NCBI GenBank assembly: GCA_964651445.1
Contig: CAZYYW010000003.1
Location: forward strand, 1 to 58,955
Source of the DNA: an uncultured Thiotrichaceae bacterium
GTDB lineage: Bacteria; Pseudomonadota; Gammaproteobacteria; SZUA-229
DNA length: 58,955 nt
Reading direction: 5' to 3'
The position numbers were made by a program, and so were the translations under genes. The first letter of the stretch is position 1. Each line of letters begins with the position of its first letter. The notes under the pieces were generated by a model. That model was not told the DNA's origin. It did not search any database and worked only from the letters and a program-made list of their open reading frames with translations. Positions 11,064 through 49,648 of this stretch are shown piece after piece.

Positions 11064-14000
11064 TTACCTTCGAAAGCGAGATAGCTGGCGCAGGTGCATT
11101 AGTAATGACAGCAGAATAAGTAACCCCCAACCTAATGCTCCGCCACCTCCACCACCACTTGCGCCATTGCCGTTATTTGTGGTGGGCGTTACCACGCCAA
11201 CTTCGACAACTATCACAAGGGCGATAGCAGTTAAGGTGTTGCCAGCTGAATCCGTCACGCTGTAACTAAAGCTATCTTCACCGATAAAGCCATTGTTGGG
11301 TGTGTAGATAAAACCATTTCCCTGTACTACAACACTGCCATTCGCGGCTTGTGCGATGACGGTAAAGCTGAAACTATCACCGATGTCTGGATCGTTTATT
11401 TCTGGCGTTAGTAATATCGAAGCCTGATTAACGGTAACATTGACCTGTAAACTTGCTGTCAGTGGCGCGCGATTAACAGCATTAACTTGGACATTCGCCA
11501 CGGCAGCAAAGGGCAGGCTAACACCACGAGCATTGGTCACCTGAAACTCAAAGCTGTCAGCGCCAACAAAATTCTGACTGGGCTGATAAAACAGCAAGCC
11601 AGCTAAGCTACTGGCAGTGCCTTGCGCGGGCTGACTGACAATACTAATATTGAAACCGGGATCGCCATCAAAGGTGACTAAAGGTGCTACACCGTCACTT
11701 TTCTGTCCCTGTTGCGTATCGATGAGTGCCAAGGCGGATAATGGCCCGGGAATGGCGCTGAAAACGGCGGTAGCCGTGCGGTTATCGGTAAGCCACAATT
11801 GACTGCCAACCTCGTTACCTTCTGCATCACCTTGCCATTGTGTTAATTCAAAACCATCATCGGCTATGGCTGTCAGGGAAACTTGCTCTTCATTGTTATA
11901 ACGGTAAACCCCCGGCGAAATTTCTATGCCGGGTGGCGACGTACTTACGCTGCCATTGCCTAAAATAGTGATAGTCAAATCTGTTGTTTGTGCTGGGTCA
12001 ATACGGCGGCGCAGTAAATGCAGTGCGTCAGCTCCGTACGGCGGCGCATAACTTTGCTGACTAACCCAGAACGCATAACGGCCATCAGCAGACAAAGCAC
12101 CGGTGCGCACAGCTGCACTGCTCAGCAAGGTATCGCTGATCCAGTTAGGCACAGCCACGCCAACAGGAAAGACATTACTGCTGCGTGCAACAAATAAGTC
12201 TTCTACCGTATTGGTATCATTATTCACAATATTGGTGTGCGATGAAACCCAGGCAACTTTACTCACATTACTTCCTGCTAGGCGATCTTGCCCAACAGAA
12301 ACATCCTGCAATGGAAAAGCTGCGTCCATCGCTGACGCTAAACCCTGAAAGCTACTGCTTGCCAGCGATAAGGAACGCGAAAAGAAACTGCCACCGGCAA
12401 CTTCACCTTGTGACAGGTAAATATCTTGATTAATAAACTCCTGATTGGTATCGACGGGAAGTAGATTTTGAACGCTCAAAAAAGCCACATCATCAGCATA
12501 CGGAGCAATCGCAAACACGCTGCCACCACTGCCAGGGATAGTCACTTCTGAGCGGATAGAAACATCCAGATCACCACCGGCATCACTGCCGGAAAAACGG
12601 ACAAGGCGTAAATCCCCGTCACTTCGGCTGTTATACACCAGATAACGCCCATCGAGGGTGACTTTGGGATACTGGGAAGCAAGTGAAGGCATGGTTGTCG
12701 CATTAATATTACTTACCGGATGGGTAATGTAGTTATCATCAAAATAATTACCGTTGCCATCTGGATCCAGATCAACCATATACACCTGCGTGCCAGGATT
12801 AGGAAAAGCCGCTAGGTAGGTAGCATTACGTTGTGACGAGAAAAACACATAACGTCCACTGAAAGTCGTGGACACACTGAAATTTCCAGACGATGATAAA
12901 TTAGCGGGCGTTCCATCGGGTGCCTGACTAACCACGGCAATGCGTTCGCTGTGCAGGTCTTTTATATACAGATTAAAGTCTTGTGCGCCGCTAACCAGAT
13001 TGCTCGCCTCACTTTCAAATATTAAGTAACGACCCGAACCCGACAGTGCCGGATTTTTACTGTGATCGTCGGCTAGCTCACCCGCTGCATTACGACTGGC
13101 AATGGTCAAAGAGCTACCCTTCCAGATAAACACATCACGGCTACGGTTGTTGTCACTGCGTACAAAGCGGTTGCCGGTGGAAGTAAAGGCTACCACCTCA
13201 CCATTGTAGGCAGTGGCAAATTGATCGATGGCACCGTTGTTACAGGCAACCTCAGTACCACTGATATTAAAGCAGGTGTTATTGTCGATGCGCGTGCTGA
13301 TAATATCGATGTCAGCATCCTGTACCACTGGGTCGATACGTTCGATAGCCAGACTCAATTCACCGGTATTGCCGGCAAGATCCTGCATTGCAATCATCAA
13401 ACGATTTTTCCCCATAGGCAAGGTAATCGTGGCACCGTATTTTGTTGGAAAACCGGTGACACCGCCCAATGTTAGATCCTGCGACATCTGATAGCCTTCC
13501 AGCTCACCCGCAATCAATAGTACCGGCGCGGCACCACTCATGCCACTACCGGCATCGCTTACTTCTAACACTAAATCAACGCTGTCGGTGAATAGCTGAT
13601 AATCATCACTGCCGCCAATTGGCACCACTGGCGTCAGTTGCAATACACTGAGCTCAGGCGCAGCAATATCGTAATACACGGTATAGCTTTCAGTACGCGT
13701 ATTTCCAACCCGGTCTGTACCACTGACACTGAGGACTACGTCACCACCCACAATTGCAGCGGCTTCCATTTGTTGCTTGAGTTCGGTTTGTTGCAAACTA
13801 AAGCTCTCGCCAGCTGGAAATACCCAGTCTGCATTTCCAGCAACCGTGAGCTGTCCATCCGCCGCATTCGAACCATAATCCTCAATACTGAAATATAACG
13901 GCGTATTCGGGCTGACCATTACCCCTAGAGCATGATTTTGCTGTAATTCAAAATTTAGACGAGGCGCGGTATTGTCCACTTGTATGCGAATTTGCTGCAC

Positions 14001-16310
14001 AGTAGTGAACTGTGTTGGCGTGAGCGGATTGGCGGTACGGAAATACAGGGTGTGAACACCCTCATCCAATGTGCCCAGTTCAATCAATTGCCCCGCCACG
14101 TTATTGCGGGTTTGTGGATTTAACAACGCACTATCATTCCACGCATATTGCAGATTACCACTGACATCAAAACCCAGTGTTAGTGCTTTTCCTGCTGGCT
14201 GACTGATAACCCAGTTAGCCTCAGACTGTGCGGTAAGTGAAATCAGTTGCGCAATTTCCGTGCCGTTGAGGATGCGGTCAAATGCCCTGCCACGCACGGC
14301 ATTGCCGCCAATTAATTCACCACGCCCTACTTTTACCACCTGCTGACTATTTGCCGCCAGAATATCTGCCTGCACCAGTTGCGGCGCTGCACCTGCTACT
14401 ACAAAACGCGCGGAGCGAATCAGTTCACGACCGCCGCGCTCATTTACAGAGCGCCACTCCATATAAAACGGCTGATTGTGCAAAGCATTGTCGCTGATTA
14501 AATCATTAAATGACACGGTTTCACCGGGCAAAATACTTGTCCAGTTGCTGATAATGTCAGCGCCGTCATCTGACGTCAGACGGTATTCGTAGTTAACCGC
14601 TGAAATAGAAATATCCACTGTCTGCCCAAAGGGAAGCAAATCAGTAATGGGGAAATCCAATGTTCGTTGAATGCTATCGGATTCAAAATGAAAGCTGGCA
14701 CTGGCATCACGTACCAAATAATTACGATTGGCACTGCTTAACACCGCAACATCGCCGTTAACCTGCATACGTGATGAAGGTGATAGTAAGGTTTCCAACC
14801 ACACCGGCCCCATAACTGGCAAATTACGGTAAAGTAAATCAGGATGCTCATATGGGAACTCACCCAATAGATCCATGCGTGGACCAAAGTTGTCGGTGGT
14901 GGTCAGTAAAAGGGCACTGCCTACGGCAACAGCGCTATCGTCAGTCTGCGCAACGATAACGCTGTTATCTGTTATCAAGTTCGGGTCATTCGCCACCGCT
15001 GCGAGGTCACTGGGAAACAGGTGAAGACCTACACCTTGCGTGCCCAAGGTAACAAACTGCTTAACATCCGGGTTGGTGGTGTAACTGGTGAGATGCACAA
15101 CGCCACCTTCCGGTGTCAAATCATCGTGCCCCGGCTCACCCTTAAGCCCGAGCAAACCTGCAACAAAGGGGCGCGCAAATTGCATGGCTATGGCAATCGC
15201 TTCACCGGTATTGGTACCACTTAGCGCTTGAATATAGGATGGCGTAACCACTTCGTTTATTGGAATCAACAACAGAAAATCAATGGCACTGCGAGCAACA
15301 GGATTAAAGCCGGCTTCGATATCATGAAATCTCACACCCAGTGGGCGAATTAGTAAATCAATAAAGTTAATCAGTAAACCCTTGGCAGTGGTAACCGAAG
15401 TGCCAAGCATGAGCTGTACACGTTCATCCTCAAAAATAGTGCTGTCAATAGCAACCGGTTCGAAATAGATCTTGGACAAGTAAGCCATAGTTGAGCCGGC
15501 AAACGGTGGCGCGTTATAGACGACATTAGCAACAAATTCAGAATCTTGAACGGATGCTGTAAAAGCCTTGTCCAGCATAGCGCGCGTAACCAGACTGCCC
15601 ATGGAGTGAGTAACGATATTGGTTTGGCGGTAGCGCGATAATTTGCCTCCTTCACGGCGTTCACTGCGCAGCATGTCTAACAAGTCCTCAGCACGTGGAT
15701 CAACTCGACCAGCACTCTGATAAGTACTACGAATCCATAGCTGACTAGCAATGCTGGCCTTTACCAGTAGCGAGAATGGCGAGATAGCAATAGGAATCGT
15801 AATCGGTGATAGTCCTAAGCCAATATCAATTTCTGACGATTGCAGAACGTCCAATGCTGAGGGTATCGGCTGGTTCTGTGCCGTCCAAGTTCCCAGTATC
15901 CAGTTAGTCCCCGCCAGCAGTTGCTCAGAATTTTGCAAAAAAGCATAACCTTCATCGGCGGTGGAGTAGGTATTAAAACCATCATCCGCCCACCACTGAA
16001 CCGCCCAGTTTTCAATGCCATTGCGGGTAAAAAAGGCAGAAGGCGAACGATCAGGACCAATAACATAATGCCGTAAATATTTTATCGACATCGGCGCCAA
16101 CTCTTCAACCGCATACAGACTGTCACGCGCCCAGGCGGTACCGTCATCAAGATAACCGTGTACATAAATCACTGGTGCCTGTGCAGGGCCATCCGGTTCA
16201 ATGGTTAAGGCAGAAGATAACGGGCTAAAAACAAGCAGTAGAAAAAATACGAAAAAGGCTACTCCAGTCTTTGTCTTTGTCGTTAGCGATATTGATGTCC
16301 CTGTTTTCAT
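11064..16310 (-). CDS. ~1750-aa secreted multidomain protein: alpha/beta-hydrolase (lipase-like), Ig-like repeats, TolB/PD40-type beta-propeller, InlB-B-like repeat, two cadherin-like/Big_9 domains and GlyGly-CTERM anchor
   Basis: Signal peptide, VHGYLDD oxyanion motif, THSMG nucleophile elbow, DNTAP/DRVGN/DLAGN Ig motifs, SGSGRYLIFESEASNLV propeller motif, YTPNNGFIGEDSFSYSVTD, and C-terminal GGGGGGALGWGLLILLSLLMHLRQLSRFRR. Likely start ATG 16310 (SD AGGGG); the ORF track starts at 16346. Confidence 0.85.
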   Translation of the reverse strand: MKTGTSISLTTKTKTGVAFFVFFLLLVFSPLSSALTIEPDGPAQAPVIYVHGYLDDGTAWARDSLYAVEELAPMSIKYLRHYVIGPDRSPSAFFTRNGIENWAVQWWADDGFNTYSTADEGYAFLQNSEQLLAGTNWILGTWTAQNQPIPSALDVLQSSEIDIGLGLSPITIPIAISPFSLLVKASIASQLWIRSTYQSAGRVDPRAEDLLDMLRSERREGGKLSRYRQTNIVTHSMGSLVTRAMLDKAFTASVQDSEFVANVVYNAPPFAGSTMAYLSKIYFEPVAIDSTIFEDERVQLMLGTSVTTAKGLLINFIDLLIRPLGVRFHDIEAGFNPVARSAIDFLLLIPINEVVTPSYIQALSGTNTGEAIAIAMQFARPFVAGLLGLKGEPGHDDLTPEGGVVHLTSYTTNPDVKQFVTLGTQGVGLHLFPSDLAAVANDPNLITDNSVIVAQTDDSAVAVGSALLLTTTDNFGPRMDLLGEFPYEHPDLLYRNLPVMGPVWLETLLSPSSRMQVNGDVAVLSSANRNYLVRDASASFHFESDSIQRTLDFPITDLLPFGQTVDISISAVNYEYRLTSDDGADIISNWTSILPGETVSFNDLISDNALHNQPFYMEWRSVNERGGRELIRSARFVVAGAAPQLVQADILAANSQQVVKVGRGELIGGNAVRGRAFDRILNGTEIAQLISLTAQSEANWVISQPAGKALTLGFDVSGNLQYAWNDSALLNPQTRNNVAGQLIELGTLDEGVHTLYFRTANPLTPTQFTTVQQIRIQVDNTAPRLNFELQQNHALGVMVSPNTPLYFSIEDYGSNAADGQLTVAGNADWVFPAGESFSLQQTELKQQMEAAAIVGGDVVLSVSGTDRVGNTRTESYTVYYDIAAPELSVLQLTPVVPIGGSDDYQLFTDSVDLVLEVSDAGSGMSGAAPVLLIAGELEGYQMSQDLTLGGVTGFPTKYGATITLPMGKNRLMIAMQDLAGNTGELSLAIERIDPVVQDADIDIISTRIDNNTCFNISGTEVACNNGAIDQFATAYNGEVVAFTSTGNRFVRSDNNRSRDVFIWKGSSLTIASRNAAGELADDHSKNPALSGSGRYLIFESEASNLVSGAQDFNLYIKDLHSERIAVVSQAPDGTPANLSSSGNFSVSTTFSGRYVFFSSQRNATYLAAFPNPGTQVYMVDLDPDGNGNYFDDNYITHPVSNINATTMPSLASQYPKVTLDGRYLVYNSRSDGDLRLVRFSGSDAGGDLDVSIRSEVTIPGSGGSVFAIAPYADDVAFLSVQNLLPVDTNQEFINQDIYLSQGEVAGGSFFSRSLSLASSSFQGLASAMDAAFPLQDVSVGQDRLAGSNVSKVAWVSSHTNIVNNDTNTVEDLFVARSSNVFPVGVAVPNWISDTLLSSAAVRTGALSADGRYAFWVSQQSYAPPYGADALHLLRRRIDPAQTTDLTITILGNGSVSTSPPGIEISPGVYRYNNEEQVSLTAIADDGFELTQWQGDAEGNEVGSQLWLTDNRTATAVFSAIPGPLSALALIDTQQGQKSDGVAPLVTFDGDPGFNISIVSQPAQGTASSLAGLLFYQPSQNFVGADSFEFQVTNARGVSLPFAAVANVQVNAVNRAPLTASLQVNVTVNQASILLTPEINDPDIGDSFSFTVIAQAANGSVVVQGNGFIYTPNNGFIGEDSFSYSVTDSAGNTLTAIALVIVVEVGVVTPTTNNGNGASGGGGGGALGWGLLILLSLLMHLRQLSRFRR

Positions 16311-16459
16311 GTGTTTTCCCCTGTCATAATCGGCTGCTATAATCAAAAGTATGGTCTGCAGAACACCTAACTGAGCGGCTCACACATCTGTATTGAACAA
16401 AGAGTGATGGCTGAGGGCATTCTTAAGCTAATCTAATTATGTCTCGCCGATATTGAAAC

Positions 16460-41336: not shown

Positions 41337-41416
41337 CCGCAAATGGTCGCTCTTACACATCCATGTGTCCGCGACATTAGTGCTGTCCTTGCACGTCAAC
41401 GCGAATAAACGCAAAT
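41337..41416 (+). repeat. 10-nt periodic arm (CGCAAATGGA/CGCGAATAAA/CGCAAAT) interrupted by a 52-nt GGA-hairpin element (41347-41398)
   Basis: Removing 41347-41398 restores CCGCAAATGGACGCGAATAAACGCAAAT. The insert is homologous to 41968-42017. Confidence 0.75.
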
Positions 41417-41492
41417 AAAAAACGAATTAATTTTTTATTTTATTGGTACAGATATCACCGACATGGCGCAAAAAAGTGTTTATTGCCCTTAG

Positions 41493-41840: not shown

Positions 41841-42030
41841 TTTGCCGCGAAGGACGCAAAAAGCGCAAAAGAAAACAAAGTTATCATTTCAAAAACACTC
41901 ACCTGGGTAACGGCCGCAGCAAATAAAAATTTTAATAATGATCCGTTTATATTTGCGTTTTTTGCACTGACGTGCATGGATGCACTAATGTCGCGGGCGC
42001 ATGGAGCGCAGGAGCGACCTTCGCGGCAAA
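41841..42030. mobile_element. Gene-less cassette bounded by 30-bp periodic inverted repeats; the right arm carries a 50-nt insertion
   Basis: Left arm TTTGCCGCGAAGGACGCAAAAAGCGCAAAA (41841-41870). The right arm (41951-41967 plus 42018-42030) aligns ungapped at 26/30 once 41968-42017 is removed. Confidence 0.7.
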
Positions 42031-42039
42031 AAAATGCTT

Positions 42040-42516
42040 TTAAATATATTTAATATCAACAATTTCCAGCGAGCGCAGCCCACCGGGTGTCTTCACTTCT
42101 GCAACGTCGCCTTCTTCTTTACCAATCAAGGCGCGGGCAATCGGCGAACCGACTGAGATCATGTCGTTTTTAATATCGGCTTCATCTTCACCAACGATTT
42201 GATAGGTCATTTCATCACCGGTTTCCTCATCGGCGACATCGACCGTGGCACCAAAAACCACTTTGCCGTTGGCATTCACCGTGGTGACATCAATGATGGT
42301 GGCATTGCCCAGCTTGCCTTCTATATCTTTAATGCGACCTTCAATAAAACCCTGCTGTTCACGCGCCGCATGGTATTCAGCATTTTCTTTCAGGTCACCG
42401 TGCTCACGCGCGGTAGCAATGTCTTCGATCACTTTTGGGCGATCAGTTGACTTCAGCTGATAAAGTTCATCCTGTAATTTTTTTGCACCGCCTACGGTGA
42501 TTGGTACTTTATTCAC
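42040..42516 (-). CDS. greA: Transcription elongation factor GreA
   Basis: [18 protein letters not shown] motif. Confidence 0.98.
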
Positions 42517-45500
42517 GCTATTGTCTCTTGTGTCTGTTTAATTGTTTTGTGCAAATCTTGTAACTTTGTAATTGAATTCATTTGCAAATAATCCAGCGCT
42601 CGAACGGTGGCATTGGCACCCGCGATGGTGGTAGTGTAACTCACCTTGTGCTGTAGTGCAGAGGAGCGAATGGTGTAGGAGTCACTAATGGCTTTCTTGC
42701 CTTCTGTGGTATTTATGATTAGCGCAATATCACCATTTTTTATCATATCCACGATATGCGGCCGACCTTCATACACTTTATTGGCTACTTTGCATTCAAT
42801 GCCAGCGGCGCTTAAAACACCGGCAGTACCGCTAGTGGCTACCAACTTAAAACCTTTAGCAACCAATTCTTTACCTAGAAAAACCGCCTGCTCGCGGTCA
42901 CGTTCACGTACACTGATAAAAACTCGACCTTTAGTTGGCAACTCTACACCCGCACCAATCTGTGCTTTCGCAAAGGCCATGCCAAAGCTCTCCCCAATCC
43001 CCATGACTTCTCCAGTGGACTTCATTTCCGGCCCTAATAGTGGATCGACGCCGGGGAATTTCACAAAGGGGAATACCGATTCTTTTACCGCATAGGTTTT
43101 AGGCACAACTTCTGCGCCTACGCCTTGCTGCTTTAAAGAAATACCTGCCATACAACGCGCGGCAATTTTTGCCAGTGGTACACCCGTGGCTTTGGAAACA
43201 AACGGCACGGTACGTGATGCACGTGGATTTACTTCCAGTAGATAGATATTGAAATTCGGTTTATCCTTCTCTTGCTGCTCACTTTGTGGCTGTTCGCTAA
43301 ATTGTATCGCAAACTGAATATTCATTAAACCAACAACGCCTAATTTCAAGGCTAACTGACGGGTTTGCACGCGCAATTGATCTTGCACTTCAGCGGATAA
43401 TGAATACGGCGGTAAGGAACAAGCAGAATCACCGGAGTGTACACCGGCTTGTTCTATGTGTTCCATAATGCTGCCGATCAAAACTTGTTCACCATCGCAA
43501 ATGGCATCGACATCAACTTCTACTGCATCGTCAAGAAAACGGTCGAGCAATACGGGCGCATCGTTGGACACGCTAACCGCATTTTTCATGTAATACTTCA
43601 AGTCGGTTTCGTTGTACACGATTTCCATAGCGCGACCACCCAAAACGTAAGAAGGTCTGACCACCAGAGGAAAACCAATTTCAGCAGCCCCTTTTACGGC
43701 TTCTTCTGTGGAACGTGCCAGGCGATTTGGTGGTTGCTTCAATCCCAACTCGTTAACTATTTGCTGAAAGCGTTCACGGTCTTCCGCCAGATCAATACAA
43801 TCGGGCGTGGTGCCAATAACCGGTACGCCAGCGGCTTCGAGATCACGCGCCAGCTTTAACGGCGTTTGCCCACCATACTGAACGATAACCCCTTTGGGTT
43901 TTTCGATGTCCATTACTTCCAGCACATCTTCTAGCGTCAGTGGCTCAAAATAAAGACGGTCGGAGGTATCATAGTCCGTTGATACGGTTTCCGGATTGCA
44001 GTTAATCATGATGGTTTCATAACCGTCATCGCGCATGGCAAAGGCAGCATGTACACAACAGTAATCAAACTCGATACCTTGGCCAATGCGGTTGGGACCG
44101 CCACCTAAGACAACAATTTTTTCTCGGTCAGTGGGCTGCGCTTCGCACTCTTCTTCATAAGTAGAATACAGGTAAGCCGTAGCCGTAGAAAATTCTGCGG
44201 CACAGGTATCGACACGTTTGTACACCGGTCGAATACCCAGTGATTGGCGATATTCACGCATGGCTTTTTCGTCAACTTTTAGCAAGCCAGCAAGGCGGCT
44301 GTCTGAAAAGCCTTTGCGTTTCAGAGCAAATAAATCTTCTTTGGACAGGTTGTTTAGTGCCTCGCCTTGCGCTGCCCTTTTGTCTAGCGCCAACTCTTCT
44401 TTGATGAGGTCTTCTATTTGCACTAAAAACCAGGGGTCGATTTTTGTCAGGTTGAACAGCTTTTCATTCGAGTAACCGCGGCGGTAGGCATCACCGAGGT
44501 ACAACAAACGATCAGCACCGGGAAGACTTAATTCCTGATTCAAGAATGACTCAATTTCATCTTCTGCCATGTCTGGGTCGAGCGCCGGGCTAAGGCCATC
44601 AATATCGATCTCAAGGCCACGCAAGGCTTTTTGCAGCGACTCCTGAAAGGTACGACCAATTGCCATCACTTCGCCGACGGATTTCATCTGCGTGGTCAGG
44701 CGGTTTTCAGCTTGCGGAAATTTCTCGAAGGTGAAACGCGGAATTTTTGTTACCACGTAATCTATCGCTGGCTCAAACGATGCCGGTGTTGCGCCACCGG
44801 TAATTTCGTTCTGCAATTCATCCAATGTGTAACCAATCGCCAGCTTGGCGGCAATTTTGGCAATGGGAAAACCAGTAGCTTTGGATGCCAACGCCGAGGA
44901 GCGAGATACCCGTGGATTCATCTCGATGATGGTCATTCGACCATCCGCTGGATTCACCGAAAACTGCACGTTGGAGCCACCGGTTTCGACGCCAATTTTA
45001 CGCAATACGGCAATCGACGCATCACGCATCTGCTGGTATTCTTTATCGGTTAGGGTTTGCGCGGGCGCGACGGTAATCGAATCGCCAGTATGAATCCCCA
45101 TTGGGTCGAGGTTTTCAATTGAACAGATAATGATGCAGTTGTCGTTCTTGTCACGCACCACTTCCATCTCGTATTCTTTCCAACCGAGAATGGACTCTTC
45201 AACCAGCAACTCATTAACCGGCGACAAGTCCAGACCACGGTGGCAAATTTCTTCAAATTCTTCCTTGTTATAGGCAATGCCACCGCCACTGCCGCCCATG
45301 GTGAAGGAAGGCCGAACGATGGTGGGGTAGCCGACCTGCGCTTGCACCTGAAAGGCTTCTTCCATGCTGTGCGCAATAGCGGCACGCGGCATGTCGAGAC
45401 CAATTTCTTCCATCGCTATCTTAAATTTTTCACGGTCTTCCGCCATGTCGATAGCATCTTTACTGGCACCGATCATCTCGACGCCAAATTTTTCCAGAAT

Positions 45501-45818
45501 GCCTTCGCGATCTAAATCCAGCGCACAATTTAACGCGGTCTGTCCGCCCATAGTGGGCAGCAATACATCGGGCTTTTCTTTTTCGATAATGGCGGCAACA
45601 GACTGCCAGGTGATGGGTTCAATATACGTCGCGTCAGCGGTTTCCGGATCGGTCATTATGGTTGCCGGATTGGAGTTCACCAAAATGACACGAATGCCCT
45701 CTTCTCTCAACGCCTTACACGCCTGCGCGCCAGAGTAGTCAAACTCACAGGCTTGGCCAATAACAATCGGCCCGGCACCGATGATTAATACGCTGTTTAT
45801 GTCTTGTCTTTTAGGCAT
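42513..45818 (-). CDS. carB: Carbamoyl-phosphate synthase large subunit
   Basis: [30 protein letters not shown], duplicated ATP-grasp domains and MGS domain. Confidence 0.99.
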
Positions 45819-45851
45819 AGTAACTATTTTTCCGCAAACAGCAAAAAAGCT

Positions 45852-46348
45852 TTAGTCCGCGAATAACGCAAAAGACGCGAAAAAAGCAAATTAAATATTA
45901 TGTTTATCATCGTAATTCCAGACTATTCTTCGAATACCTAGCCTTGCCACTCCAAAATTTAATAAAAGTCCTACAGTCAATCCTAATGCTTTCAGGTAAT
46001 TCATTACTTGCGCATCATGCTCCTTATTGAAGGCCGACAATGCTTTTAGCTCAATGAGCAACCTATCATCCACAACAATATCAGCGATATAGTGACCAAC
46101 CTCTATGCCTTTATAACTGATAACAAACTGCGGCTGCCGCTGTATAGGAATACCTGCTTGCGTTAGCTCCATACACAATGCGTTCTCATACACTTTTTCC
46201 AAAAAACCGGCACCTAAGCCATGACTAACATTCTGCGCGCATTTCAATACACGTTCACTTAGCCCGCCACCACAAACCATAAAACCTCCCTGTTTTCAAA
46301 AATAAATGTTTCGCTTTTTTCGCGTCTTTAGCGTTATTCGCGGACTAA
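45852..46348. mobile_element. Cassette of the GxxExxY gene bounded by 36-bp inverted repeats, inserted between carA and carB
   Basis: TTAGTCCGCGAATAACGCAAAAGACGCGAAAAAAGC (45852-45887) and its reverse complement at 46313-46348 match at 35/36, with internal 9-nt periodicity. Confidence 0.8.
45891..46280 (-). CDS. GxxExxY protein (PD-(D/E)XK nuclease superfamily)
   Basis: GFLEKVY signature, IADIVVDDRLLIELKA (D...ExK), AQVMNYLKA and GLLLNFG; SD GGAGG. Confidence 0.92.
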   Translation of the reverse strand: MVCGGGLSERVLKCAQNVSHGLGAGFLEKVYENALCMELTQAGIPIQRQPQFVISYKGIEVGHYIADIVVDDRLLIELKALSAFNKEHDAQVMNYLKALGLTVGLLLNFGVARLGIRRIVWNYDDKHNI

Positions 46349-46354
46349 CAGCTT

Positions 46355-47485
46355 TTAAGTCTTTTCCATCAGCGCTATAAAATGATCAAACACCGGTGCT
46401 ATATCGTGCGGCCCGGGACTGGCTTCCGGGTGCCCCTGAAAGCCGAAAGCGGGTTTATCGGTACGCTGTATGCCTTGCAATGAACCATCAAATAGCGAGC
46501 GGTAAGTTGCCTCTAAATTATCCGGAAGACTGTCTTCATCAACCGAAAAACCGTGATTCTGGCTGGTAATCATAACTTTTTTGCTGCTTAAATCTTGCAC
46601 CGGATGATTAGCACCGTGATGGCCAAATTTCATTTTTTGGGTTTTTGCGCCACAGGCCAATGCCAGTAGCTGGTGCCCTAAGCAAATACCAAAGATTGGC
46701 AGCTCGGTTTGTAAAATCTGTCGTATCGCGTCGATGGCATAGTCGCACGGTTCAGGGTCGCCGGGACCGTTGGATAAAAACACACCATCCGGCGACATCG
46801 CCAACACTTCGCTGGCGGGGGTTTTTGCCGGTACCACTGTAACCTTACAACCGCGCGCTACCAACATACGCAAGATATTGCGTTTTACACCGTAGTCGTA
46901 GGCGACGACATGAAATGTTGCCGCTATTGCTTCTGCTGGTTGACTGGTTGCCAGATTCCAGACACTGTCCGTCCAGTGATAGATTTCTGAGGTGGTGACT
47001 TCTTTGGCTAAATCCATGCCTTTTAAACCGGCAAAGGCGCGGGCTTTTTCAGTGGCGGAGGTTGCGACATCAGCCACATCAGTACTGGCTATTATGCAAC
47101 CACTCATAGCGCCCTTATCACGCAGCAAGCGAGTTAAACGCCGGGTATCGATGTCTGCTATAGCCACCGTATTATTATCAACCAGATAGTCCTGCAGGCT
47201 TTTTTCACCGCGCCAGTTACTCATCACCATAGCGCTATCACGAATCACCAAACCGCTGGCATGTATGCCTGCCGCTTCTTCATCCGCTGCGTTAGTGCCA
47301 ACGTTGCCGATATGCGGATAAGTTAAGGTAACGATTTGTTTGCTGTAGGAAGGGTCAGTCAGAATTTCCTGATAACCGGTCATTGCGGTATTAAAAACCA
47401 CTTCGCCGATGGTTTCGCCGTAAACGCCGATGGACTTGCCGTAAAACAAGCTTCCATCTTCAAGCGCTAAAACAGCAGTGGTCAA
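46355..47485 (-). CDS. carA: Carbamoyl-phosphate synthase small subunit
   Basis: [29 protein letters not shown] and [12 protein letters not shown] motifs. Confidence 0.99.
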
Positions 47486-47647: not shown

Positions 47648-47723
47648 TGGCGTCCCCAAGGGGAGTCGAACCCCTGTTGCCGAGATGAAAACCCGGTGTC
47701 CTAGGCCTCTAGACGATGGGGAC
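47648..47723 (-). tRNA. tRNA-Glu (TTC)
   Basis: 76 nt GTCCCCATCGTCTAGAGGCCTAGGACACCGGGTTTTCATCTCGG...GGGGACGCCA. Confidence 0.97.
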
Positions 47724-48207: not shown

Positions 48208-48720
48208 ATGAAACTAAGTACGCTGGAAACAGTCTTTAGCGCCCTCAATAGTGCCGATATCCGCTACCTCGTTGCAGGCGGCATTGCCGTTAACATCCAT
48301 GGTTATCAACGCATGACGGCTGATTTAGACTTGGTCATTCAGCTTGATGCCAACAATATAAAAAATGCAATGAATAGCCTGACTCACCTTGGCTACCTTC
48401 CCCTTATACCCGTAACCGCGGACGATTTTGCCGACCCAGGCACACGAAAAAACTGGATTGAAACAAAAAACATGCAAGTGCTATCGCTGCAATCAACACA
48501 ACACCCTGAAACCACCATCGATATTTTTGTAACCGAACCTTTTGATTTTGATCTTGAATATAAAACTGCAATTTCTGCCGAACTGACACCCGACATCCAT
48601 TTTAATCTTGTCAATATTCCAACATTAATAAAAATGAAACAGCAGGCTGGTCGGGCGAAAGATATGGATGATATAGAGCATTTAACACTCATTTTGGATA
48701 ACCAACAAAATGAGCAGTAA
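48208..48720 (+). CDS. Minimal nucleotidyltransferase (DNA pol beta-like superfamily), putative TA component
   Basis: GGIAVNIHGYQRMTADLDL (GG...DxD) motif and C-terminal K...GRAKDMDDI. Confidence 0.8.
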   Translation: MKLSTLETVFSALNSADIRYLVAGGIAVNIHGYQRMTADLDLVIQLDANNIKNAMNSLTHLGYLPLIPVTADDFADPGTRKNWIETKNMQVLSLQSTQHPETTIDIFVTEPFDFDLEYKTAISAELTPDIHFNLVNIPTLIKMKQQAGRAKDMDDIEHLTLILDNQQNEQ

Positions 48721-49065: not shown

Positions 49066-49299
49066 ATGAAAACCATTACATTGAAAGCTGACAGTGATTT
49101 TGATTCACTGCTCAACCAGCTTGCGTCACGCCTGCACAAAACACGCAGCAGCGTTATTCGCGATGCTGTACACAATTACCAGCAACATATAGAGCGTGAA
49201 GAACTAAAACAAAAAATTCAGGCTGCCTCACTCAAGACCCGGAATCAGGCGATTGAAGCAGCAATAGATCTTAGCGATGGAAACGGCGATGGCTTATAA
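49066..49299 (+). CDS. Ribbon-helix-helix (CopG-like) antitoxin
   Basis: MKTITLKAD beta-strand, TRSSVIRDAV helix; overlaps the downstream toxin gene. Confidence 0.85.
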   Translation: MKTITLKADSDFDSLLNQLASRLHKTRSSVIRDAVHNYQQHIEREELKQKIQAASLKTRNQAIEAAIDLSDGNGDGL

Positions 49300-49648
49300 A
49301 CGCGGCGCAATTTACCTGGCGAACTTCAACCCGTCAAAAGGAATAGAAGCGGGGAAAATTCGCCCCTGTCTTATTATGCAAAGCGATTTACTCAATGAGG
49401 TTAACCACCCAAGCACAACGGTACTGCCATTAACAACACAATTAATCGATGATGCCGCCCCTTTAAGATACCGCATTAACGCTCGGGATCAGTTAAAAAT
49501 CGATTCCGATTTAATGCTAGATCAAACACGCACGATTGATAACCGACATATAAATAGCGAACAATTAACCTCACTCAGCCAGACTGAAATGGTCGAAATT
49601 GACAGCATGTGCCAGATCGTACTTGGGTTAGACGACCGACTGGTTTAA
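49289..49648 (+). CDS. PemK/MazF-family endoribonuclease toxin
   Basis: KRGAIYLANFNPSKGIEAGKIRPCLIMQ, VLPLTT and DQTRTIDNR motifs. Likely start ATG 49289. Confidence 0.9.
   Translation: MAYKRGAIYLANFNPSKGIEAGKIRPCLIMQSDLLNEVNHPSTTVLPLTTQLIDDAAPLRYRINARDQLKIDSDLMLDQTRTIDNRHINSEQLTSLSQTEMVEIDSMCQIVLGLDDRLV

Follow-up and report, generated by a model that had tools for sequence, protein, structure and literature searches.

A GxxExxY nuclease gene in the loop of a periodic hairpin between carA and carB, and its relationship to a dispersed family of gene-less hairpins

The 58,955-nt stretch of DNA analysed here (the window; contig CAZYYW010000003.1 of an uncultured Thiotrichaceae bacterium) carries on its minus strand, in this order, carA, an open reading frame (ORF) of 129 aa, carB, greA, yhbY, rlmE/ftsJ and ftsH (Table 1). 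The short ORF and the inverted arms enclosing it, together termed the cassette below, are the subject of this report: the carA-carB spacer contains a hairpin-type repeat whose loop accommodates a GxxExxY (PD-(D/E)XK) nuclease gene that looks functional. Profile searches with the 129-aa protein recovered the TIGR04256 GxxExxY model (E-value 3e-39, 134 bits against a cut-off of 35) and the Pfam PF13366 PDDEXK_3 model (9e-38, 129.7 bits against a cut-off of 22), and PDDEXK_3/GxxExxY is its sole match in Pfam and NCBIfam. The motif residues are present as G25-F-L-E28-K-V-Y31, D67 and E77-L-K79; in a family alignment of 56 sequences E28, Y31 and K79 are invariant, while D67 and E77 are conserved in at least 90%. 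The protein is thus a member of the GxxExxY/PDDEXK_3 family in every defining feature tested, namely the profile score, the GxxExxY motif with the D...ExK residues, and the fold.

In the AlphaFold2 (AF2) model of this protein (predicted local distance difference test, pLDDT, 91; predicted template modelling score, pTM, 0.84) the nearest folds recovered by Foldseek are Cas4 SSO0001, lambda-exonuclease-like proteins and the AddB nuclease domain, with the splicing endonuclease EndA and Hjc further down. As modelled, it falls among the minimal RecB/Cas4/lambda-exonuclease-type PD-(D/E)XK nucleases. A search of the PDB by sequence recovered no relative of the protein, and the literature searched contained no account of the function of GxxExxY/PDDEXK_3 proteins (PF13366, TIGR04256). 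Many representatives of the family (P0121, P0122, P0125 and P0129 among them) are tandem fusions of two GxxExxY domains with lengths of 250-290 aa, and given how common such fusions are, the single-domain protein might act as a dimer. No sigma70-like promoter was detected in the region 45700-46500; in view of this and of the conserved Shine-Dalgarno sequence, the gene is most simply understood as a translated passenger of the carAB transcript.

The inverted arms (45852-45899 and 46301-46348) measure 48 nt with 88% complementarity, contain a 36-nt core with a single mismatch (35/36), and are each built of three 9-nt units, CGCGAATAA, CGC(A/T)AAAGA and CGCGAAAAA. The 30-mer CGCGAATAACGCAAAAGACGCGAAAAAAGC matches only the two arms in the entire 58,955 nt, with no match expected from 100 shuffles, and the ungapped inverted-repeat score of the cassette is 33 against a median of 8 and a maximum of 20 in control ORFs. 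On the sense strand the RNA is predicted to fold into a stem of about 47 bp (z = -5.0), the first pair of which lies within the carA stop codon and the end of which is about 30 nt ahead of the carB start. The cassette has a GC content of 37-43%, against 48-53% in its flanks, and relatives whose site is empty have a carA longer by 2 aa than that of the window. No direct target duplication or transposase is visible at the cassette, no Rfam family reaches its threshold in the window, which also has no rRNA, and an Rfam search of eight hairpin-bearing loci of other genomes gave only sub-threshold, generic likeness to miRNA-precursor hairpins. A sequence-only reading that preceded this analysis had described the GxxExxY gene between carA and carB, its inverted arms of 9-nt units, the overlap of the outer arm extension with the carA stop, the lack of a target-site duplication or transposase and the membership of the protein in the PD-(D/E)XK superfamily with its D...ExK residues; on all these points the present results agree with it.

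All relatives considered in the following are metagenome-assembled genomes (MAGs) or metagenome contigs, and their loci are designated by L numbers. Close homologues of the protein are numerous in metagenomes (62-88% identity, all of about 129 aa), and all seven that could be placed on contigs sit between carA and carB with the same arms, in a common synteny of sugar transferase, carA, GxxExxY, carB, greA, yhbY and rlmE. All sampled homologues at 57-88% identity likewise occupy the carA-carB spacer, comprising all nine loci with a cassette of the kind found in the window (type 1) and the loci with a second kind (type 2) described below. A carA-anchored scan of metagenome contigs recovered 76 other loci, with carA 64-74% identical to that of the window, that have neither the gene nor the arms; in 70 of the 76 the carA-carB spacer spans 1-153 nt, which bears out the usual adjacency of the two genes assumed in the sequence-only reading. 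Occupancy follows carA identity, the spacer being occupied at 76% or more (9/9 loci tested) and empty in the 76 loci at 64-74%, with L217 as the sole exception, and type-1 arms are absent from the 79 carA-anchored loci of cassette-free lineages.

The ratio of nonsynonymous to synonymous divergence (dN/dS) of the GxxExxY gene against its orthologues is 0.07-0.12, which indicates that the protein is maintained, and the synonymous sites of carB are saturated between the same genomes (proportion of synonymous differences, pS, 0.64-0.78). The 32-nt arm cores of these orthologues are nonetheless identical at 27-32 of 32 positions (84-100%), and such near-identity despite saturated synonymous sites suggests that the arm sequence is constrained beyond pairing or has been repeatedly homogenised. 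Across the seven orthologous cassettes 95.6% of the stem cells are paired and five pairs have changed on both sides (e.g. T:A, G:C and A:U at one position); in this sample of seven related loci, with pS values near saturation, none of 500 shuffles reached the observed pairing or covariation score. G.U wobbles, counted as a test of RNA-level against DNA-level constraint, number 56 in the sense and 46 in the antisense orientation, and the lack of a sense-strand bias leaves a constraint on the mRNA alone unsupported. The cassette is old at the carA-carB site and under purifying selection. Some loci depart from the simple layout: in L006 (1410-1600 and 2040-2245) two complete gene-less hairpins stand on each side of the GxxExxY gene instead of one arm each, and in L008 (4920-4975; also in L009 and L010) a 9-nt tandem repeat, GGCGATAAA x5, lies directly inside the left arm and resembles a slippage expansion of the arm unit.

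The type-2 cassettes are typified by L215 and L217, distant members that came from a profile search. Their proteins are 57-61% identical to that of the window, both lie between carA and carB, and their arms consist of 10-nt units, CCGCAAATGAACGCGAATGAACGC, such that the type-1 protein goes with CGCGAAKAA units and the type-2 protein with CGCRAATGAA units. The host of L215 is nested in the clade of the window: the first 500 aa of its carB are 94-96% identical to those of the window, L001, L004, L007 and L008, the type-1 proteins of which are 68-88% identical to each other and only 57-61% identical to the L215 protein. In L129, the closest carA relative of the window (88.6%), a type-2 arm follows straight after the carA stop. 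L217 is occupied, whereas its nearest relative L130 (carA 86%, carB 92%) is empty with carA and carB essentially abutting. Between L002 and L004 the cassette has a pS of 0.19 against 0.69 in the adjacent carB. In L004 the type-1 right arm is separated from carB by a type-2 right arm that is still complete, and the window keeps the last unit of such an arm, TTTGCGGAAAAA, in the same position; the corresponding arm looks functional in L215 and L217. Two type-1 genes appear damaged, one in L121 (MAG CAYQXD01; 1205-1215) by an in-frame TGA (KAS*LTVG) between intact arms, which is possibly an assembly error, and one in L007 (3500-3541) by an altered and shortened C-terminus, reflecting pseudogenisation or an assembly error.

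Taken together with the low GC content of the cassette, these observations suggest that cassettes have been gained, lost and replaced between lineages at one fixed spacer. Purely vertical inheritance of a single old insertion, which the shared site and the 76 empty loci had first suggested, was dropped given the type-2 cassettes, the L217/L130 pair and the pS discordance. The comparison of carA-carB spacers that the sequence-only reading had put forward, with exclusively vertical divergence as the outcome that would speak against a mobile element, thus uncovered an empty site beside an occupied one, a swap of cassette types (L215/L129) and discordant divergence (L002-L004). Its view that the element inserts into spacers of conserved operons without breaking them stands in so far as carA and carB are unbroken and the nuclease gene is intact, but has to be narrowed from conserved operons in general to the single carA-carB spacer. 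Likewise, its proposal of a mobile or selfish element gains from the turnover at the site and from the enrichment of arms described below, whereas the age of the gene at this site and the strong purifying selection on it do not favour the proposal, and nothing shows the protein moving the element.

Other lineages hold unrelated inserted genes in the same spacer, suggesting that it is a recurrent landing place. By Pfam, L144, L170 and L173 contain a LysE translocator there; the insert of L139 comprises an Mrr restriction enzyme and a UPF0175/DUF3368 pair, and that of L204 a 152-aa protein without assigned identity. In L169 (1801-2163; carA 68% identical) the spacer contains gene-less hairpins of CACGAATTA 9-nt units, which have the same design and another sequence. 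In L215 (1312-2437) carA is split into two ORFs by a frameshift near codon 262, a possible assembly error or pseudogene.

The arms of the cassette, with their three 9-nt units, belong to a dispersed and nearly always gene-less repeat family of intergenic spacers in the Thiotrichaceae-like clade, so that the cassette is not the self-contained unit that the sequence-only reading had taken it for. In L001, L002 and L007 the same arm pair is present in the greA-yhbY and yhbY-rlmE spacers around 4-190 nt of non-coding DNA; the greA-yhbY copies of these three are intact, and the window copy is degenerate. In a scan of one genome per species at least 117 stretches match a pattern of 22 fixed arm bases, many contigs per Thiotrichaceae or 'Gammaproteobacteria' MAG being involved. 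The motif also occurs, again as intergenic hairpins, in Pyrinomonadaceae, Planctomycetes, Verrucomicrobia, Sumerlaeota, Chthonomonas, Saprospiraceae, Rhodanobacter, Accumulibacter and others, with a single match in viral contigs (L128). An arm profile detected 75 arm pairs, mostly spaced 0-140 nt apart, and a GxxExxY gene is enclosed only in the carA-carB pairs. These pairs lie between co-directional genes in 35 cases, between convergent genes in 18 and between divergent genes in only 3, which indicates that the hairpins sit in transcribed 3' regions. At least seven loci of the MAG NORP24 share a composite element of about 190 nt containing the hairpin, implying that the repeat is copied at the DNA level; no direct target duplication was found at the seven copies.

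Two further ideas about these repeats were rejected. The nuclease gene does not appear to spread into cognate hairpins within this clade, as GxxExxY genes are lacking beside about 100 arm loci, and the cassette arms are not supported as the master copy of the repeats of each genome, for those of CAYQXD01 carry private variants. A near-identical hairpin of aaCCGCGAAAAACGCGAAAGACGCGAAAA, a loop and its complement is found in intergenic regions of L019, L027, L030, L034, L041, L099, L103, L115, L128 and others. Its hosts include Acidobacteria, Planctomycetes, Verrucomicrobia, Sumerlaeota, Armatimonadetes, Bacteroidetes and one viral contig, with several copies in some MAGs, and the 8-kb loci around these cross-phylum hairpins have no GxxExxY gene. 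No description of the hairpin repeat, including the cross-phylum form, was found in the literature searched for the arm sequences. In a Thiotrichales bin102 chromosome (L113:1700-1800) a periodic hairpin made of CACAGATGAA/CGCAGATAAA units encloses a type-1 hairpin within its loop, so that hairpin loops apparently offer sites where further hairpins can insert.

The association of such arms with GxxExxY genes is not confined to this clade. At 50% identity (E <= 0.001) the family comprises 14,206 clusters, of which many have two fused domains, and its members in other bacteria occur in unrelated gene contexts. Inverted arms with about three 9-10-nt units apiece border genes that share 42-51% identity with the query, and the arm sequence differs from gene to gene (e.g. 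CGGAATAAA, CCAGATGAA, CACGAAAGA, CGCAGAAAA and CACGGATGA). The distant arm-bearing loci are five distinct ones on viral contigs (L209-L214, with L211 and L212 duplicating each other), L219, two tandem genes of L222, and L223; the Bacteroidetes-like loci each have their own arm units, and some of the distant loci have extra gene-less hairpins alongside. Against 365 control ORFs, for which the ungapped inverted-repeat score has a median of 8, a 99th percentile of 12 and a maximum of 20, six of 11 independent non-type-1 genes score above 12 with 160-nt flanks and two more do so with 260-nt flanks, i.e. 8/11 where 1% is expected. In most cases, then, GxxExxY genes of unrelated bacteria lie within hairpins that share this design and have a lineage-specific sequence; in this small sample the enrichment of arms around homologues that the sequence-only reading had suggested looking for is present.

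Certain members of the family deserve separate mention. L222 (1716-2914) has two tandem GxxExxY genes, each with a downstream hairpin of ACAGGATGC-type units, next to a prepilin-type (N_methyl) gene, and thus shows the family in a multi-copy state. On the viral contigs L210, L211, L213 and L214 the GxxExxY gene has a common downstream lipoprotein-like gene and differing arm units, which suggests that in Bacteroidetes-like genomes one site has undergone turnover of its arms or received independent cassettes. The predicted N- and C-terminal extensions of many members resemble translated periodic repeats that are mutually reverse-complementary (MNTDEHG... and ...IRVHPW; DRITGFSG and NPVILSK), a lead only.

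The reading of these observations that we favour, with a probability that we would place somewhat short of even, is that of a two-part selfish system in which a nuclease and its cognate hairpin act together through recognition, cutting and a homing-like re-invasion. The nuclease, probably as a dimer, would recognise the periodic units of its own arms, as suggested by the way in which arm type travels with protein type and by the fused forms, which point to a dimer on a symmetric substrate. DNA might then be cut where the hairpin or cruciform is extruded, or close by, and recombinational repair via the arms and the conserved carA and carB flanks could allow the gene-bearing copy to re-invade or displace alleles at the spacer in the manner of a homing gene. 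This activity may also act in trans to mobilise gene-less hairpins, as has been proposed for RAYT and REPINs (see below). The gene itself would travel as a passenger on the carAB mRNA and rely on its own Shine-Dalgarno sequence for translation, with the long stem probably also being an RNase III site at which the passenger is excised, as in ORF-bearing 23S rRNA intervening sequences (IVSs), which would let the host operon tolerate the insert. A broader version, about which we are rather doubtful, would make GxxExxY proteins the dedicated nucleases of a widespread and hitherto unrecognised hairpin-borne selfish class, in which each lineage recognises its own arms of three 9-10-nt units, persists by re-invading a fixed spacer or hairpin loops in a homing-like manner, and generates gene-less hairpins resembling miniature inverted-repeat transposable elements (MITEs) across phyla, with the ORF-bearing rRNA IVSs as a special case.

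Several points weigh against the two-part system. Both the replacement and the low-pS signals might stem from homologous recombination of the ordinary kind in the carAB region; no target duplication or defined junction was found, the empty spacer of L130 being too short and too diverged. About 750 kb around arm copies, covering roughly 100 arm loci and searched with a narrow and then a broad hidden Markov model (HMM), contain no GxxExxY gene except that of carAB. The genome of the window has an intact gene and almost no other hairpins in 59 kb, while clean hairpins are numerous in the MAG CAYQXD01 despite the stop codon in its gene; the abundance of hairpins therefore does not simply track the presence of the gene. 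A strict match between the cassette type and the hairpin type of a genome is not supported, given a type-2 hairpin in a type-1 genome. The samples are small (7-11 loci), drawn from MAG and metagenome contigs, with synonymous sites near saturation, and the functional roles considered here for the GxxExxY family are derived from sequence comparison and a structural model.

Other explanations account for parts of the same evidence. The cassette might be only an insulated passenger resembling an IVS, with RNase III cutting the stem and thereby freeing the ORF from the carAB transcript, and with a nuclease whose job in defence, toxicity or repair is unrelated to the arms. A stem running from the carA stop codon to shortly before carB, the combination of no internal promoter with an own Shine-Dalgarno sequence, the upkeep of complementarity by compensated changes and the transcribed 3' or intercistronic positions of the hairpins would all be in keeping with this, as would the shared architecture with the Coxiella 23S IVS, which has an ORF in the loop, is excised by RNase III and has three tandem short repeats at its 5' stem (PMC4990558). 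It nevertheless seems unlikely, since the arm sequence itself is conserved beyond pairing despite saturated synonymous sites, the wobbles show no preference for the sense strand, identical multi-copy hairpin elements require copying at the DNA level, and the periodic 9-10-nt units and protein-specific arms would be left unexplained. Distinctly less credible is a domesticated and essentially vertical gene that benefits its host, for instance through the carA:carB expression ratio or as a housekeeping nuclease, with the hairpin as a host regulatory structure. The single site in all nine type-1 and the type-2 loci, the dN/dS of about 0.1 with conserved arms and the agreement of the clade boundary with carA identity (L217 excepted) would be expected of such a gene; an empty sister (L130), 76 other lineages that manage without the gene, two cassette types replacing each other in closely related hosts, broken copies (L121, L007), a GC content 10 points under that of the flanks and unrelated contexts of family members elsewhere would not.

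It might also be supposed that protein and arms are functionally unlinked, hairpins having colonised many spacers and a small gene merely having come to lie in one loop. The neighbouring spacers with the same hairpins and no gene, the roughly 100 gene-less arm loci and the nesting of hairpins in hairpins (L113), which would make loops common insertion points, lend this some colour; we consider such a coincidence very improbable, given that distant GxxExxY genes of other phyla have periodic arms of their own far in excess of expectation (8/11 against 1%) and that each cassette type brings its own arm type to the same spacer. That the inverted repeat is itself a chance or low-complexity match, as the A/T-rich arms with their simple periodic units might insinuate, has practically no probability in the face of the shuffles without a match, the fold z-score of -5, the compensated changes within conserved arms in seven orthologous loci and a score of 33 where controls do not exceed 20.

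The two-part system finds partial parallels among known systems. In the 23S rRNA of Coxiella an IVS has an ORF in its loop and a stem base of three tandem heptamers and is excised by RNase III (PMC4990558); ORF-bearing IVSs are distributed sporadically, through horizontal gain followed by vertical maintenance, and their ORF sometimes decays (PMC4990558). The cassette resembles the IVSs of Coxiella, Leptospira and others, which have an S23p/four-helix-bundle ORF, in having a small ORF in the loop of a long stem within a host transcript, a stem of about three short tandem repeats and a sporadic distribution, and differs from them in lying in an mRNA spacer rather than in helix 25 or 45 of 23S rRNA, in encoding a PD-(D/E)XK nuclease under purifying selection instead of S23p, and in having arms that are also dispersed as gene-less repeats. 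Some curated family notes may place GxxExxY genes in IVSs. Systems that pair REP-associated tyrosine transposases with REP doublets forming hairpins (REPIN-RAYT; REP, repetitive extragenic palindrome), reportedly the subject of work by Nunvar in 2010, Bertels and Rainey in 2011 and Ton-Hoang in 2012, offer a likeness in the single-copy, vertically persisting gene at a conserved extragenic position and in the repeat whose inverted copies flank it, gene-less copies of which are scattered over intergenic 3' regions and the sequence of which is specific to the enzyme lineage. The enzyme of the cassette is, however, a PD-(D/E)XK protein and not an HUH/Y1 (IS200/IS605-like) transposase, and its arms consist of three direct 9-10-nt units that pair only with the opposite arm and are not self-palindromic GTAG REPs. 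A clear correlation of gene presence with repeat abundance did not emerge here, genome copy counts being lower bounds.

Free-standing homing endonuclease genes ("intronless homing"), such as the seg and mob genes of T4, and the PD-(D/E)XK homing enzyme I-Ssp6803I form another point of comparison. The cassette shares with such genes a nuclease gene confined to one intergenic site between conserved genes, presence and absence between sister lineages, a host-discordant genealogy and degenerate copies, a likeness drawn from site and genealogy; nothing comparable to the periodic hairpin with its gene-less copies is known from homing genes, and the GxxExxY family has large paralogous sets elsewhere. 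Correia elements of Neisseria have a TA target duplication, and neither these nor the ERIC/IRU elements (enterobacterial repetitive intergenic consensus/intergenic repeat units) are known to have a coding partner or 9-nt units. They are like the cassette family in being short, intergenic and co-transcribed, with terminal inverted repeats, RNase III-type stems and many copies per genome, and unlike it in that the latter has a coding partner and 9-nt periodic units and no TA duplication was seen. Inverted repeats are shared with MITE/DDE transposons, of which a direct target-site duplication is absent at the cassette flanks and at the seven NORP24 copies. Hairpin DNA as the proposed recognition structure recalls IS200/IS605, yet no Y1/DDE transposase or cleavage tetranucleotide was found, and the insertion of IS1397 into REP loops parallels the nested hairpins. 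By analogy the architecture is most like that of an ORF-bearing 23S IVS and the population behaviour most like that of a RAYT-REPIN system or a free-standing homing gene; the cassette is placed in none of these classes, defining features being absent (no rRNA or S23p; no Y1 or REP palindrome; no target duplication or DDE transposase).

PF13366/TIGR04256 is a large family of small proteins without assigned function, to which the present locus offers a concrete partner in the form of a periodic hairpin, and the two cassette types with empty alleles at one spacer between universally conserved genes constitute a natural experiment. If the nuclease does act on its arms, it would represent a new enzyme class behind intergenic hairpin repeats, would explain the origin of long ORF-bearing stems in operons and rRNA, and would add small nucleases whose specificity, set by repeats, looks programmable. 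Otherwise, a cross-phylum hairpin family of 9-nt units, mostly downstream of genes, would still be new to the literature searched.

Table 1. Features of the carAB region of the window, with coordinates in the 58,955-nt stretch
Feature	Position	Strand	Evidence and remarks
carA, carbamoyl-phosphate synthase small subunit	46355..47485	-	Pfam CPSase_sm_chain/GATase in relatives; last codons and stop overlapped by outer hairpin end
carA-proximal arm (5' arm on sense strand)	46301..46356	-	GTC-CGCGAATAA-CGCTAAAGA-CGCGAAAAA-AGC plus outer extension to the carA TAA stop; arm profile E = 1e-13
Shine-Dalgarno GGGAGG	46285..46290	-	4 nt upstream of the GxxExxY ATG; AGGGAGG/AAGGAGG in all relatives
GxxExxY/PDDEXK_3 nuclease gene, 129 aa	45891..46280	-	G25xxE28xxY31, D67 and E77xK79 intact
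carB-proximal arm (3' arm on sense strand)	45845..45899	-	Complementary to 46301-46356; inner end overlaps the nuclease stop codon; E = 1e-14
TTTGCGGAAAAA (sense strand), last-unit remnant of a type-2 arm (units CGCRAATGAA)	45827..45838	-	Just upstream of the carB start; position conserved
carB, carbamoyl-phosphate synthase large subunit, downstream operon partner	42513..45818	-	ORF call; synteny in relatives
Degenerate gene-less hairpin copy, greA-yhbY spacer (GCCGCGAAGGTCGC... / ...GCGCTTTTTGCGTCCTTCGCGGC)	41843..42031	-	Arm profile E = 0.05
Solo type-2-like arm remnant (AACGCGAATAAACGCAAATAAAAAACG), yhbY-rlmE spacer	41400..41436	+	Arm comparison

Beside carAB the window contains a small accessory island between tRNA-Glu (47648-47723) and the sugar-transferase gene. 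It consists of a ribbon-helix-helix antitoxin (77 aa) overlapping a PemK/MazF-type toxin (123 aa) at 49066-49648 on the plus strand and, just upstream of this pair, a 170-aa ORF (48208-48720) without a Pfam match. Elsewhere in the window, a 1760-aa ORF on the minus strand (11064-16346) has cadherin-like/Big_9 and InlB B-repeat domains towards its C-terminus and probably encodes a large surface protein.

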